IMG/VR virus record: IMGVR_UViG_2529292853_000006
Reading direction: 5' to 3' (one strand)
Length of the DNA: 47,785 nucleotides
Source of the DNA: a virus
Lineage: Duplodnaviria > Heunggongvirae > Uroviricota > Caudoviricetes
The position numbers and the translations under genes were made by a program. Below are positions 19,608 through 47,785 of this stretch, piece after piece. Under the pieces are notes generated by a model. The model was not told where the DNA came from, did no database searches, and saw only the letters and a list, made by a program, of their open reading frames with translations. Numbering within the stretch: the stretch's first letter is position 1; each line of letters starts with the position of its first letter.

Positions 19608-19822
19608 TATTCACCTCTCGCAGCCTTGCGCTTATCTTCTTTAATCTTGAAATAAAGGTTTGTCAGGTACGTCAGCAGGCCAAATACCAGACTACCCAGC
19701 ACACCGATTGCAGCCCACTGTGACGGAGTTACTCTATCGAGCAACTGTAAAAACCAGTAGCCAGCACTGCCTGCGGAGGTGCCGTAGGCAATGCCTGTTG
19801 AAATTTTGTCCATGGATTTCAT
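19607..19822 (-). CDS. pinholin (phage 21 S-like) with dual-start motif
   Basis: [14 protein letters not shown]... 71 aa; Met1-Lys-Ser-Met4 holin/antiholin arrangement; ORF-track start at 19879 is an upstream extension. Confidence 0.85.
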
Positions 19823-32449: not shown

Positions 32450-33526
32450 TTACCCCCTGAAGCCCGGCGGAATTTCGTTATCCGGTTCAGAAATATGATT
32501 CACACAACGCTGGTTGTTCGTGCCGCTTACCGGGAGCAACCAGGGGTTCTCAAAATTCCGGTCCGGTCCAAAAAACGTCGTCGCTCGCTGAACAAATTCC
32601 GTTCCCGTTTTCCCGGTAGCCGCCAAGTATCTTGCGTAACGCCTCACGCCATCCAGCATGGCCTCTGGTGGCACCCCCTCGCGTAATCTGGCCTTCCAGG
32701 CACTGAAAGCGGATTTCTTCGGGTTTGCCCCAGCACGCAACGGGTACTCCCGCCAGACCTGTTCGAACACATCCGGATAATCCACTCGTCCCACAGACTG
32801 CCCGGTGTTTTCCGGGACTACCCGATCGGCTTCCCGCTGAATGGCGGAATCGGCTTCGGGCTGCTGCAGTTGGTGTGATTGCTCCGGCCTTGCGGTCATC
32901 ACCTGCTGCACAGCGCCCGAATCGGCTTTCAGCGCATACGCTGAATCGGCTTCCGGTGTCGTGCCTGCTGGCTGACCAAGATTGACGGTCTGAACATCCC
33001 CTGCCTGGTTCGTGGCGTTTTTTACGCCATGGACCATAGTGTTTTGATCTTCTTGATCTGTATCTTTATCTGTATCTTTATCTGTCGTGACTCGTCGTGA
33101 CATATGCGTGACATTTCGTGACGCGCCGTGACAATCGCCATTTTGTTCCCGCTTTCTTTCCCTCTCTCGCTGCGCCCTCTTGCGCTCTGCAGGAGATTTT
33201 GCGGTTTGCGAAATATTGCCGTTGTCCTCTTTAAGCACCTGGCGTTTTTCCCATCCAGTGATTAAATCACCATCAAGTACCCGCCCCTGCATCGTCTGCA
33301 AAATTGAATCAATTACCTCTTCTGTCACGTCGAGCGCACTTGCCAAATCTTCTGTCGTGACCTCAATGTGACCTCGCGTGACATTTCGTGACGCGCTCAC
33401 CAGGAGGTGGATATACACTGCCATCACTGTTGCAATTGGCTGCCCTGACACCCTGGCAATTGTTCGCCACTTAGGGTCATTTGGCATGTCATGCCATAAT
33501 CTGAGCCAGGCGTTAGCCATACTCAC
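32450..33526 (-). CDS. replication initiation protein (lambda O-like organisation; YdaU-like C-terminal region)
   Basis: 358-aa ORF containing two iteron arrays; low-complexity DKDTDKDTD linker encoded by the repeats; position after ydaT. Confidence 0.55.
   Translation of the reverse strand: MSMANAWLRLWHDMPNDPKWRTIARVSGQPIATVMAVYIHLLVSASRNVTRGHIEVTTEDLASALDVTEEVIDSILQTMQGRVLDGDLITGWEKRQVLKEDNGNISQTAKSPAERKRAQRERERKREQNGDCHGASRNVTHMSRRVTTDKDTDKDTDQEDQNTMVHGVKNATNQAGDVQTVNLGQPAGTTPEADSAYALKADSGAVQQVMTARPEQSHQLQQPEADSAIQREADRVVPENTGQSVGRVDYPDVFEQVWREYPLRAGANPKKSAFSAWKARLREGVPPEAMLDGVRRYARYLAATGKTGTEFVQRATTFFGPDRNFENPWLLPVSGTNNQRCVNHISEPDNEIPPGFRG
33055..33133. repeat. iteron array 1 (putative replication origin) inside the O-like gene
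   Basis: Two tandem TGTATCTTTATC units, then five CGTGAC copies at 10-11 bp spacing (33086, 33096, 33107, 33117, 33127). Confidence 0.6.
33324..33392. repeat. iteron array 2 inside the O-like gene
   Basis: Four CGTGAC/TGTGAC copies at 10-11 bp spacing plus one inverted GTCACG; shares the 21-bp string GCGTGACATTTCGTGACGCGC with array 1. Confidence 0.55.
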
Positions 33527-33591
33527 CTCTTTTGATACCGAATCTTTTTACTCACAAATTGCCGGAAGCGATCCGGTATGAATATTGCGAG

Positions 33592-34017
33592 TCAATGCAC
33601 AGCCACAATATTTCCTGCAGGGCCACCACGATTCATCTGGTTGAAACCAGCGATCGCCACTGCGACAAAATCATCAGCGTCTCTCACCAGTCGTTCCCGC
33701 GTCTCCACTAGTTCCCGAAAATAGGCTGAGCTATGACTGCGCATTCGGGCCACCAGCAGAGGTGGCATTGCTTTTTCGATAGCTGGTAACAACGCCTGAA
33801 TTTTTTTAACCGCATCAGGGGTGTCTTTCTCCACCCAGCGGAAAATTTTCTGAGTATTGCGAGCCAGGGCTTCCGGATGGCTGTCGTCATACAGTTCCGG
33901 GAACGTCATTCCCAGCTCGAAATACGCTTTGGTAATTTTCGCAGCCGGTACTTTTTCGCCGTCCGGATGCGCCCAGGCATTCATCGCCATGCGGATGTGT
34001 TCATGCTTGATTTTCAT
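33592..34017 (-). CDS. ydaT: Rac-type YdaT protein
   Basis: 141-aa ORF MKIKHEHIRMAMNAW...; matches K-12 Rac YdaT as recalled; 4-nt overlap with ydaS. Confidence 0.75.
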   Translation of the reverse strand: MKIKHEHIRMAMNAWAHPDGEKVPAAKITKAYFELGMTFPELYDDSHPEALARNTQKIFRWVEKDTPDAVKKIQALLPAIEKAMPPLLVARMRSHSSAYFRELVETRERLVRDADDFVAVAIAGFNQMNRGGPAGNIVAVH

Positions 34018-34268
34018 GAATCAACTCCCATCAGCTTTTTCGTAGTAGTTTTATTCCTGCCAATAGTTAAAATTGCATCGGCAGAAAATAATCCGTTTGA
34101 TGCAAGAGCGATTTTTTCAGCGTAATTTGTTTCGCCGGTATATTCTGTGCGAGGCAATTTTCCGTTATCCATCCATTTATAGATTGCTCTTTGGCTGACA
34201 CCACAAACGTCGGCCACAACAGCAACGCGAACAGTTTTGATTACATCTTCAAGTGTTTTCTGGTTCAT
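34014..34268 (-). CDS. ydaS: Cro-like HTH regulator YdaS
   Basis: Start at the internal ATG with GAGGGTGAT SD; HTH (VADVCGVSQRAIYKW); divergent from racR. Confidence 0.7.
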   Translation of the reverse strand: MNQKTLEDVIKTVRVAVVADVCGVSQRAIYKWMDNGKLPRTEYTGETNYAEKIALASNGLFSADAILTIGRNKTTTKKLMGVDS

Positions 34269-34347
34269 ATCACCCTCACAATGTGAACTTTGAGTACATG
34301 CTATAACAGAACTGACAGTACATTCAAGAGCGAATATCATTGAACTT
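34269..34347. promoter_or_regulatory. OR-like operator/promoter region between ydaS and racR
   Basis: Two AGTACAT sites 24 bp apart (34293, 34317) and palindrome TCACAaTGTGA (34276-34286); racR ATG has no SD. Confidence 0.45.
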
Positions 34348-34767
34348 ATGGTTCATGAAGATAAAGCGCGTAAAGAGTTCGCCAGTAGGCTTGCGCTAGC
34401 CTGTGAAAACGCTGGTTATGAACAACATGGAAGGCAGGCAGAAATTGCCCGTCGAATGAAATTAACACCAAAAGCGGTTAGCAAATGGTTTAATGGCGAA
34501 ACAATTCCTCGCCGGGAGAAATTAAGGGAATTAGCAACACTAATAGGAACAACACCAACCTATCTTTTGGGAGAGGATACAGAAGAAAGTGGACAGGTAC
34601 GTTTCTATCAGGAGTTAAATCCAAGACAAAAAATCATCATTGACCTTCTGGACGAGCTCCCTGACAGTGAGACAGATGAACTTTTAAAAACTCTTGAAGA
34701 GAAAAAACAGAAGTACAATGCAATTTACGAAGAGTTAGCACGAAAGAAAAAACAAAAAGCCTCTTAA
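34348..34767 (+). CDS. racR: prophage repressor RacR (cI-like)
   Basis: 139-aa HTH protein (RQAEIARRMKLTPKAVSKWFNGE) divergent from the Cro-like gene. Confidence 0.75.
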   Translation: MVHEDKARKEFASRLALACENAGYEQHGRQAEIARRMKLTPKAVSKWFNGETIPRREKLRELATLIGTTPTYLLGEDTEESGQVRFYQELNPRQKIIIDLLDELPDSETDELLKTLEEKKQKYNAIYEELARKKKQKAS

Positions 34768-34841
34768 ACCAGCATAAATCCGGTAGCGCCTTCCTCCGGG
34801 TTTGTGCTTCACTTTATCCCATCTCATTTTTTTACACATAA

Positions 34842-34886
34842 AATGTACTAAATGTACTTTACAACAATGAACACAAAGTACATTAT
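34842..34886 (+). promoter_or_regulatory. OL/pL-like operator-promoter downstream of racR
   Basis: Three ATGTACT-containing sites (two direct, one inverted) overlapping a candidate TTTACA-17-CATTAT promoter. Confidence 0.4.
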
Positions 34887-35053
34887 ATGCCTGCCACCCA
34901 CCCCGCCCCACAGAATGCAGGGCAATACTTCGAGTTACCAGGCAGTGGTCAGGGGTTAAGTAGCCAGCCCGAGGCGTAAGAACATGACGGCGGGATTCAA
35001 ATTTTGCAGTGCAGCAGTTAGTTCCGCCACCCGGCGTTAAGGGGAGAGATAAG

Positions 35054-35188
35054 ATGGTGCATTACGAAGTAGTTCAGTATTTGATGGATTGTTGCGGTAT
35101 CACTTACAACCAGGCTGTGCAGGCTTTACGCAGCAACGACTGGGATCTCTGGCAGGCAGAAGTCGCTATACGTAGCAACAAGATGTGA
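35054..35188 (+). CDS. ydaG: Rac small protein YdaG (44 aa)
   Basis: My own translation MVHYEVVQYLMDCCGITYNQAVQALRSNDWDLWQAEVAIRSNKM; GGGGAGAG SD; below the ORF-track size cut-off. Confidence 0.65.
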   Translation: MVHYEVVQYLMDCCGITYNQAVQALRSNDWDLWQAEVAIRSNKM

Positions 35189-35198
35189 GATTCGCAAA

Positions 35199-35354
35199 AT
35201 GCAAAAAATCGACCTCGGCAACAACGAATCCCTGGTGTGCGGCGTGTTCCCCAACCAGGATGGAACGTTCACTGCCATGACGTATACCAAAAGCAAAACA
35301 TTTAAAACCGAAACTGGTGCGCGCCGATGGTTGGAGAAGCACACAGTAAGCTAA
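35199..35354 (+). CDS. ydaF: Rac small protein YdaF (51 aa)
   Basis: My own translation MQKIDLGNNESLVCGVFPNQDGTFTAMTYTKSKTFKTETGARRWLEKHTVS; the 72-aa minus-strand ORF 35126..35344 is antisense to it. Confidence 0.65.
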   Translation: MQKIDLGNNESLVCGVFPNQDGTFTAMTYTKSKTFKTETGARRWLEKHTVS

Positions 35355-35839
35355 CGATTAAAACGTCTACTCCTGCTGTTCCAGAATAACTTCATAAAAT
35401 GGGAGTATTTTTCGGTGACGAGATAATAAGAACAGTTTGCGCTATCACTCTGATGTTGAATGATGCCCTTCCGTTCTAATTTTTTCATAACCGGGTTACG
35501 GCAAGGAGAAGTGATAATAAGATTTCCTGTTTTAAGGAAATCTTTAAATACAGCGATTTCTTTCTCAGATAAACGAAGCAATACTCGTTGCTCTGGTAGT
35601 AATGAATAATGCTTTTGAATATGTGCTCGCAATCTTGAGAAGGAAATGGCGACCACGAAAGAAAAGGCAAAAACGATAATCTGAAAGAGCCAAGGTATTT
35701 CAGTATAAGCATTGAATGCGACAGTAAACTCTTTCGGTATCAGCCAGAGAGTGAGACCAAAAATGATAATCGTATACATAAGTCTTTCGAGTGGCTCGTT
35801 AGCAAAAAGTTTCAACAATGGAGTAAATACATCCAACAT
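35351..35839 (-). CDS. sieB: superinfection exclusion protein SieB
   Basis: 162 aa from the internal Met (MLDVFTPLLKLF...); TM segments; matches Rac SieB as recalled. Confidence 0.8.
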   Translation of the reverse strand: MLDVFTPLLKLFANEPLERLMYTIIIFGLTLWLIPKEFTVAFNAYTEIPWLFQIIVFAFSFVVAISFSRLRAHIQKHYSLLPEQRVLLRLSEKEIAVFKDFLKTGNLIITSPCRNPVMKKLERKGIIQHQSDSANCSYYLVTEKYSHFMKLFWNSRSRRFNR

Positions 35840-47526: not shown

Positions 47527-47785
47527 TGCCACTGCTGGATAAGCTGCGTGAGCAGTACGGGGTCGGACCGCTATGCAGCGAACTGCATATTGCCCCGTCA
47601 ACGTATTACCACTGTCAGCAACAGCGACATCATCCGGATAAACGCAGTGCCCGTGCGCAGCGCGATGACTGGCTGAAGAAAGAGATACAGCGCGTATACG
47701 ATGAAAATCACAAGGTATACGGTGTGCGTAAAGTCTGGCGTCAGTTGTTACGGGAAGGTATCAGAGTGGCCAGATGCACTGTGGC
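47523..47785 (+). CDS. IS629-like transposase OrfB, 5' part (in -1 frame relative to OrfA; truncated by window end)
   Basis: [33 protein letters not shown]... begins in the A-run at the orfA stop. Confidence 0.8.

Follow-up and report, generated by a model that had tools for sequence, protein, structure and literature searches.

The stretch of DNA analysed here, 47,785 nucleotides from a virus of the Caudoviricetes (IMG/VR record IMGVR_UViG_2529292853_000006) and hereafter called the window, carries around positions 34,269 to 34,886 what is very likely the immunity switch of a prophage with the Rac backbone, in which a module of the HK022/933W type has replaced the racR-ydaS genes of the Escherichia coli K-12 Rac prophage and a repressor of 139 amino acids (aa) acts on five operators of 17 bp. 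Judged from sequence, the operator system is of the well-studied HK022/933W type and not that of K-12 RacR. The evidence consists of the sequence layout, homology, conservation and the way in which operator type varies with repressor type, and it is from these that we infer repressor binding, regulation, transcript ends and the oligomeric state.

An earlier note on this region had drawn attention to five copies of the heptamer ATGTACT in two clusters around the repressor gene, which it read as the right (OR) and left (OL) operators of a cI-like repressor. All five copies were found, at 34293-34299(-), 34317-34323(-), 34843-34849(+), 34852-34858(+) and 34877-34883(-). The window as a whole contains nine copies against 4.0 expected from shuffles, and since five of them are packed into 591 bp, where about 0.05 would be expected by arithmetic from the shuffle value, their clustering is far above chance. 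The two clusters, the divergent genes and the leftward promoter agree with the operator reading; the heptamers, however, are fragments of the binding unit, which by its letters is an imperfect inverted repeat, the 17-bp dyad ATGWAC-N5-GTWCAT. The putative operators and the repressor gene that they flank are as follows, with scores from a position weight matrix (PWM).

34283-34299, no strand: OR1-equivalent operator, GTGAAC-tttga-GTACAT; core match, 1 mismatch to the 17-mer, second-best PWM score in the window
34307-34323, no strand: OR2-equivalent operator, CAGAAC-tgaca-GTACAT; core and 17-mer match, PWM score in the top five
34340-34356, no strand: OR3-equivalent operator, TTGAAC-ttATG-GTTCAT; best PWM score in the window
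34348-34767, plus strand: repressor gene, 139 aa; Pfam HTH_3, with a helix-turn-helix (HTH) of the HK022/933W type, a linker and a helical C-terminal domain
34843-34859, no strand: OL2-equivalent operator, ATGTAC-taaat-GTACTT; core and 17-mer match, PWM score in the top five
34867-34883, no strand: OL1-equivalent operator, ATGAAC-acaaa-GTACAT; perfect match to the 17-mer consensus, PWM score in the top five

Four of the heptamers are in-register half-sites of the GTAC type. The copy at 34852-34858 arises when the self-complementary GTAC core is read out of register, and the two direct copies are therefore a single operator. The third OR site contains no heptamer and had been missed by the heptamer reading because both of its halves are of the GAAC/GTTC variant. 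Measured from centre to centre, the sites are spaced by 24 and 33 bp in the OR cluster and by 24 bp in the OL cluster.

The core GWAC-N5-GTWC matches the 47.8-kb window seven times against 1.55 expected, no shuffle having given seven, and the five operator sites account for five of these matches. When a PWM trained on the HK022 operators alone was run over the window, the five sites came out as the top five of approximately 47,800 positions, and the same ranking was obtained with a matrix trained on the operators of HK022, Klebsiella phage Kp4864-1 and Citrobacter phage Omnitron. It could be envisaged that such repeats have arisen by chance in AT-rich promoter DNA, as short AT-rich words recur in intergenic DNA and the best single-site PWM scores can be reached in shuffles. 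Against this, the core matches number seven in 47.8 kb and five of them lie in two clusters of 40-75 bp at the expected positions, the top five scores came from a matrix trained on other phages, and the layout is conserved across seven lineages, so that we regard a chance origin as extremely improbable.

Further candidate sites in the window were attributed to chance. The site at 23619-23635 (11 bits, AT-rich intergenic DNA) has a broken right core (CTAC) and is neither conserved nor placed like an operator, while that at 21235-21251 has an intact core with poor flanks (8 bits) and falls within a match to the small RNA (sRNA) STnc100; at 46796 there is a core-only match, and these two are likewise neither conserved nor in an operator-like position. 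The STnc100 match itself (Rfam, 86.6 bits) is intergenic at 21159-21345(-), and the core-only GAAC-N5-GTTC inside it, at 21237-21249, is probably a coincidence. An 11-bp palindrome, TCACAATGTGA, had also been put forward as a second type of operator. It is present at 34276-34286 and its sequence is unique in the window, but palindromes of that form number 63 there, and we found neither statistical nor comparative support for an operator function. It overlaps both the Shine-Dalgarno (SD) sequence of the cro-like gene and OR1, its right end being the left half-site of OR1, and among relatives, none of which conserves the palindrome, this stretch is the least conserved (0.55 mean identity, no invariant column).

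The gene between the two clusters had been called racR in the earlier note. Its product turned out to be a homologue of the CI proteins of the HK022/933W type instead, and has the very sequence that is annotated as CI in Escherichia phage Tritos (100% identity). In its N-terminal part it shares 47.5% identity with HK022 CI and 50.7% with the 933W-type CI (tblastn), and over all aligned columns of a four-way alignment 40% and 31%, respectively. The recognition helix reads TPKAVSKWFNGE in the repressor, TPKAISKWFNGE in HK022 and SSKGVSKWFNAE in the 933W-type protein. With K-12 RacR (P76062) the only alignment comprised 12 of 33 HTH residues, at 25.8 bits. Kinship with repressors of the PaaR2 type was also considered and dropped, there being no significant similarity (E = 4.3).

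The K-12 Rac prophage offered an opportunity to compare operator type with repressor type. No GWAC dyads were found within 6 kb in K-12 Rac. Instead, K-12 Rac carries five TAGGC-N3-GCCTA sites, against 0.09 expected, in a 3+2 arrangement at the same five positions, with three of them between racR and ydaS and the other two downstream of racR, where they surround a TTGACA-17-TATAGT promoter; the intergenic sites have been footprinted with purified RacR (PMC9638921). As for the downstream pair, the RacR-type dyads TAGGTAATGCCTA and TAGGCTATGCCTA of K-12 MG1655 Rac (L002 2631-2668) are 25 bp apart and flank this promoter in the manner of OL and PL; the RacR paper (PMC9638921), searched by word for ydaG, kilR and 'downstream of racR', gave no hit. 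In the window, TAGGC-N3-GCCTA is absent from the switch region, and the one match with a single mismatch, at 19785, is about what chance would give. The GWAC dyads were likewise not found in the Cronobacter phage phiES15, whose repressor has the same C-terminal domain joined to a different N-terminal domain. Thus, as K-12 Rac and phiES15, both with other N-terminal domains, are without GWAC dyads, the type of operator tracks the DNA-binding domain.

These observations also bear on the possibility that a K-12-type RacR recognises single ATGTACT heptamers, whether direct or inverted. In its favour are the enrichment and clustering of the heptamer, and the gene does occupy the position of racR in K-12 Rac. 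Nevertheless, only those 12 of 33 residues are common with K-12 RacR, whose operators are the TAGGC-N3-GCCTA sites (PMC9638921) for which the window has a single near-match at chance level; the third OR site is without any heptamer; and the 'AT' of the heptamer at 34852-34858, inside OL2, differs in relatives (tg, aa, ag), as expected of spacer bases, while the dyad GTAC-N5-GTAC stays. Recognition of heptamers by a K-12-type RacR is thus very unlikely, and the repressor is better taken as one of the HK022/933W type reading the 17-bp dyad.

The OR and OL DNA of the window can be aligned to that of HK022 and to a 933W-type record that carries annotations of OR1, OR2, OR3, OL2 and OL1 at equivalent places, the OR1-equivalent falling on HK022 OR1 and the annotated 933W-type OR1, and the OL2-equivalent on its HK022 counterpart and the annotated OL2. 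Conservation was followed across seven lineages: HK022, Klebsiella phage Kp4864-1, Citrobacter phage Omnitron, Salmonella phage Si3, the 933W-type phage and two Salmonella prophages. The 3+2 layout, with spacings of 24 and 33 bp in OR and 24 bp in OL and with the ATG in OR3, was found in HK022, Kp4864-1, Omnitron, the two Salmonella prophages and Tritos. The plan is the same in the 933W-type record and in Si3, except that OR2 does not fit the core pattern there and was placed by annotation and alignment. In all seven lineages the third OR site has the start codon in its spacer, and its right half-site consists of codons 2-3 (Val, His/Gln). Mean identity across the seven was 0.82-0.94 in half-sites, 0.63-0.71 in ordinary spacers and 0.55-0.70 in flanks. 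The OR2 spacer, at 0.91 with 4 of 5 columns invariant, owes its conservation to its second role as the repressor promoter's -35 core; the OR3 spacer, at 0.83, owes it to holding the ATG.

In the two Salmonella prophages, the short repressor is 62-65% identical to the 139-aa repressor, and the open reading frame (ORF) is intact, with the C-terminal domain and all five operators kept. A higB-higA-like toxin-antitoxin pair lies between the short repressor gene and OL (L010 4553-5220 and L011 4588-5255), in the slot that is taken by paaA2-parE2 in CP-933P and by rexAB in lambda. The OL cluster is displaced together with its promoter past higB-higA, as expected for OL/PL.

These Salmonella versions argue against the sites being operators only by descent, in a switch that has become a fossil within a cryptic prophage and whose layout persists through recent common ancestry. 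K-12 Rac is indeed cryptic, the -10 of the PR-like promoter (TATAGC) is imperfect, and most E. coli copies are at least 95% identical, for which reason conservation within E. coli says little. However, besides the Salmonella prophages at 62-65%, with their ORF, C-terminal domain and five operators, an identical repressor is encoded in the deposited phage genome of Tritos, and the ORFs of the window's switch are intact with proper signals. A fossil is therefore an improbable account, and we take the region to be probably a working immunity switch of the HK022/933W type.

Three putative promoters, two of them called by a promoter scan, lie under the operators.

34300-34327, minus strand: PR-like promoter, TTGAAT-16-TATAGC with a TG extension (ctgtTATAGC); read by eye, and predicted to drive the cro-like and ydaT-like genes
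34312-34340, plus strand: PRM-like promoter, CTGACA-17-TATCAT; promoter scan, 10/12 matches
34858-34886, plus strand: PL-like promoter, TTTACA-17-CATTAT; promoter scan, facing ydaG-ydaF-kilR-recET

Transcription from the rightward (cro-like) promoter is predicted to start within the OR1-equivalent, and the OR2-equivalent occupies the spacer of that promoter, overlapping its -35 by 2 bp; the OR2 spacer (TGACA) is at the same time the -35 core of the repressor promoter (34312-34317). The repressor ATG lies inside the OR3-equivalent, the right half-site of which is formed by codons 2-3 (Val, His/Gln). On the other side of the gene, the OL2-equivalent adjoins the leftward promoter's -35 or overlaps it, and the OL1-equivalent overlaps the -10 of that promoter. 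The candidate PL-like promoter had been proposed previously, and the scan returned it with the same hexamers. Its -35, as CTTTACA, is kept in five of the seven lineages. For the PR-like promoter, the assignment to 34327-34300 is a reading of the letters, and the positions aligned with it in relatives read TTGACT/TTGCA and CATAAT, while the HK022 hexamers aligned to the PRM-like promoter are CTGATA and TATAGT.

The absence of an SD sequence before the repressor ATG, and from it a leaderless repressor transcript as for lambda cI, had also been suggested beforehand. The first point was borne out: the 20 nt upstream of the start form an anti-SD duplex of -1.9 kcal/mol, against a random mean of -2.0, in comparison with -6.1 to -8.3 kcal/mol for the neighbouring cro-like, ydaT-like and ydaG genes. 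An upstream start for the 139-codon ORF is excluded by an in-frame TGA at 34291, and RefSeq WP_000233319.1 starts at the same codon. The -10 of the PRM-like promoter ends 7 nt before the ATG at 34348, so that the predicted start falls at the A of the ATG or 1 nt before it, and alignment shows this geometry of promoter and ATG to be kept in relatives. The lack of an SD together with the position of the -10 supports a leaderless reading, and the mRNA from the PRM-like promoter is probably leaderless, with the start point as predicted. Lambda cI mRNA begins at its AUG, as a leaderless PRM transcript. For PaaR2 of CP-933P, a leaderless mRNA was demonstrated by rapid amplification of 5' cDNA ends and N-terminal sequencing (PMC8630535), and in K-12 the strongest racR promoter, PracR3, was leaderless by primer extension, one of three mapped racR start points (PMC9638921).

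The divergent cro-like and ydaT-like genes complete the right side of the switch.

34014-34268, minus strand: cro-like gene, 84 aa; SD GAGGG, -6.1 kcal/mol
33592-34017, minus strand: ydaT-like gene, CII-type activator analogue; Pfam YdaT_toxin, and PHROG 163, CII-like activator
34007-34024, no strand: YdaT-box, TTGATT-N6-AATCAA (TTGATTTTCATGAATCAA), across the start codon of the ydaT-like gene; no other match in the window is free of mismatches

The cro-like gene had been named ydaS in the earlier note. Its product is a homologue of HK022 Cro, with 60% identity over 73 aa (E = 1e-33), and showed no significant similarity to K-12 YdaS. The ydaT-like product is 33% identical to K-12 YdaT. The YdaT-box sits within 30 bp of 97% identity to K-12 Rac (33994-34023), among genes whose products drop to as low as 33% aa identity, and this island is the only K-12-shared DNA left of 34894. 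The box was footprinted in K-12 Rac, where YdaT bound to it activates a reverse PRE-like promoter within ydaS and raises racR expression (PMC11879457), and a YdaT-box consensus is reported for CP-933P (PMC9986795). By analogy, the YdaT-like protein of the window probably activates an establishment (PRE-like) promoter toward the repressor gene through the YdaT-box.

The perfect YdaT-box at 34007-34024 and the activity of K-12 YdaT on a reverse promoter within ydaS (PMC11879457), together with only one of the three mapped racR starts in K-12 being leaderless, raise the possibility that the repressor is made mainly from longer transcripts, begun at a YdaT-activated PRE-like promoter in the cro-like gene or at other upstream starts and translated by internal initiation independent of an SD. 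Yet the best promoter match on the strand puts the start at the ATG, and the ATG lies inside OR3 in seven lineages. The two routes are also not mutually exclusive. Lambda uses both PRE and PRM. We thus consider it rather unlikely that longer transcripts are the main source of repressor, and prefer the leaderless transcript from the PRM-like promoter.

Among known switches, that of HK022 is close to the window in its three OR dyads at 24 and 33 bp, its cI ATG in OR3 and its two OL dyads 24 bp apart over PL, in the half-site (A/T)TG(A/T)AC, in a nearly identical recognition helix and a 60% identical Cro, and in DNA identity of 72% across cro-OR-cI and 81.5% across OL. It differs in its CI, of 235 aa with an S24 (LexA-like) C-terminal domain where the window has 139 aa with an unrelated two-helix domain, and in its downstream partner, which is of the lambda CII type and not of the YdaT type. 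HK022 also has an extra sixth GTAC-N5-GTAC dyad, between cro and cII (L004 2165-2177), which is probably the 'far right' operator O_FR of Carlson and Little, an identification that carries no weight here. We found no equivalent of it in the window, where the cro-like and ydaT-like genes overlap and thereby account for its absence.

933W resembles the window in the G-W-A-C core of its dyads, three OR and two OL sites with OR3 over the cI ATG, and an N-terminal domain 51% identical. In contrast, its sites are described as 15 bp and have mostly C in place of T ahead of the G, the recognition helices diverge at residues 41 and 43 (S and G against P and A), and its repressor is of the S24 type and reported to be non-cooperative (PMC3317979). 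The same study mapped the binding determinants experimentally: in the 15-bp symmetric site, positions 2-5 (G, A/T, A, C) are conserved among natural operators, mutation of positions 3-5 weakened binding, and a structural model sets recognition-helix residues on operator positions 2 and 3 (PMC3317979). The PRM of 933W is stimulated by occupancy of OR2 and repressed by occupancy of OR3 (PMC4848623).

The K-12 Rac switch has the same backbone, the same position between ydaG and ydaT and the same YdaT-box, and its operators too are arranged 3+2, the third covering a start codon that is leaderless (PMC9638921; PMC11879457), but its repressor and Cro-like protein are unrelated beyond the HTH and its operators are TAGGC-N3-GCCTA. 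The modules of the window and of K-12 can thus be regarded as heteroimmune alleles of one locus. From 34894 rightward, beginning 8 bp past the -10 of the PL-like promoter, the window is 99.8% identical to K-12 Rac (ydaG, ydaF, sieB, kilR and onward). A boundary of this kind is classic for heteroimmune cassettes of lambdoid phages.

With lambda the window has in common 17-bp dyads, an OR1-OR2 distance of 24 bp, divergent PR and PRM and an OL over PL. The operator sequence of lambda is another, however, and it has three OL sites against two in the window; moreover, lambda OR2 stands beside the PRM -35 and not on it, and lambda OR3 upstream of the start point and not on it. The PaaR2-YdaS-YdaT system of CP-933P is another bistable switch on the lambda pattern in a prophage resembling Rac; its repressor is leaderless, its operators form OR and OL clusters, and it has an analogue of YdaT/CII (PMC8630535). 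It differs in the PaaR2 repeats, of the GTTTAGTAA type, and in a toxin-antitoxin pair downstream of the repressor.

The least ordinary part of the window's switch is the 139-aa repressor, with its helical C-terminal domain instead of a LexA-like cleavage domain. No Pfam Peptidase_S24 match was obtained in it, and the CI alignment stops before the GDSM motif; PF00717 is present in the full-length relatives and absent from the 139-aa family. An AlphaFold2 (AF2) model, with a mean predicted local distance difference test (pLDDT) score of 82.6, has a five-helix HTH domain, a low-confidence linker at residues 77-87, which is probably flexible, and a C-terminal domain of a short helix (92-103) followed by a 33-residue helix (106-138). 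As the Salmonella relatives and phiES15 gp11 have kept this C-terminal domain, and as the repressor matches PHROG 5736 over residues 27-139, the short repressor represents a genuine family and not a truncation. Structure and fold searches with the C-terminal domain gave generic HTH matches only, none at E <= 1e-3, and SinR, DdrO, the SPC32H repressor and an arbitrium-phage repressor, all short HTH proteins with helical tails, appeared in the structure search as weak analogies only. On the model, the C-terminal domain may serve in dimerisation. The only match to a LexA box (CTGT-N8-ACAG) in the window is at 25567, within a transporter-like ORF and at chance level, and the LexA-controlled anti-repressor at which it might have hinted was set aside. 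It is possible, although short of probable, that the repressor is a natural chimera of a DNA-binding domain with HK022 specificity and a non-cleavable helical C-terminal module, which in Cronobacter phage phiES15 is found on a different DNA-binding domain.

By homology with 933W and HK022, the switch would most likely work as follows. A repressor dimer, probably held together by the long C-terminal helix, would bind the five dyads through its 434/P22-like HTH domain. With OR1 and OR2 occupied, the rightward promoter of the cro-like and ydaT-like genes and its start point would be blocked, and with OL2 and OL1 occupied the leftward promoter of ydaG-ydaF-kilR-recET would be blocked too, its -35 and -10 being covered. 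Repressor on OR2, at the -35 of the repressor promoter, would by analogy with 933W probably stimulate that promoter, while OR3, because it covers both the start point of the repressor's own transcript and the start codon, would bring about negative autoregulation once repressor is abundant. Transcription of the repressor mRNA is predicted to start at or next to the AUG, and the mRNA to be translated without an SD. The HK022-Cro homologue would be expected on the same operators, and the YdaT-like protein probably boosts repressor synthesis from the upstream establishment promoter via the YdaT-box.

Several points weigh against this account of the switch. The -10 of the PR-like promoter, TATAGC, lacks the conserved final T, and with C as its final base the promoter was not called by the scan. 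The single-site PWM scores of 14-20 bits fall within the range of best scores in shuffled windows (mean 13, max 19), and the case therefore rests on clustering, position and conservation and on no single site. The centre of OR2 falls near -33 of the predicted repressor promoter, over its -35 hexamer, an unusual placement which by simple geometry would be repressive, and activation of the promoter from OR2 is suggested by the analogy with 933W only. Since the C-terminal domain differs, dimerisation, cooperativity and looping between OR and OL do not carry over from the CI proteins of HK022 and 933W. Finally, in the literature searched we found no paper on the 139-aa repressor, WP_000233319 or phage Tritos.

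Elsewhere in the window, the RalA antitoxin sRNA is present at full length (225 bits) at 40776-40954(-) and adjoins ralR as in K-12 Rac. An ALIL pseudoknot at 47481-47597(+), a frameshift element of insertion sequences (IS) of the IS3 family, indicates an IS element near the right end of the window.

The immunity module was found at a coverage of at least 80% in 1047 of 5426 complete E. coli genomes (~19%). The closest full-length match to 33500-35500, NZ_CP102853.1 (strain 573), has an inserted IS1A and measures 2778 bp against 2001 bp of the query, the window being without the insertion. As the repressor and the operators differ, results on K-12 RacR, including its essentiality, its operators and its cross-talk with C proteins, cannot be transferred to the strains that carry this module, ~19% of the complete E. 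coli genomes. An annotation trap is thereby corrected, in that the gene at the racR position of a Rac prophage can be another repressor. The region is also a natural example of a swap of lambdoid immunity modules, with its breakpoint 8 bp past the PL -10. For an immunity type that is very common and apparently unstudied, the analysis provides a testable operator map of five sites, three promoters and one YdaT-box, in which the switch is predicted to control kilR, recET and the cro-like and ydaT-like genes, and predicts cross-immunity with phage HK022. If the repressor is the chimera suggested above, Rac-like prophages of this kind would make their hosts immune to HK022-type phages and would themselves be insensitive to RecA-mediated cleavage, so that their induction would need an anti-repressor or would never occur.

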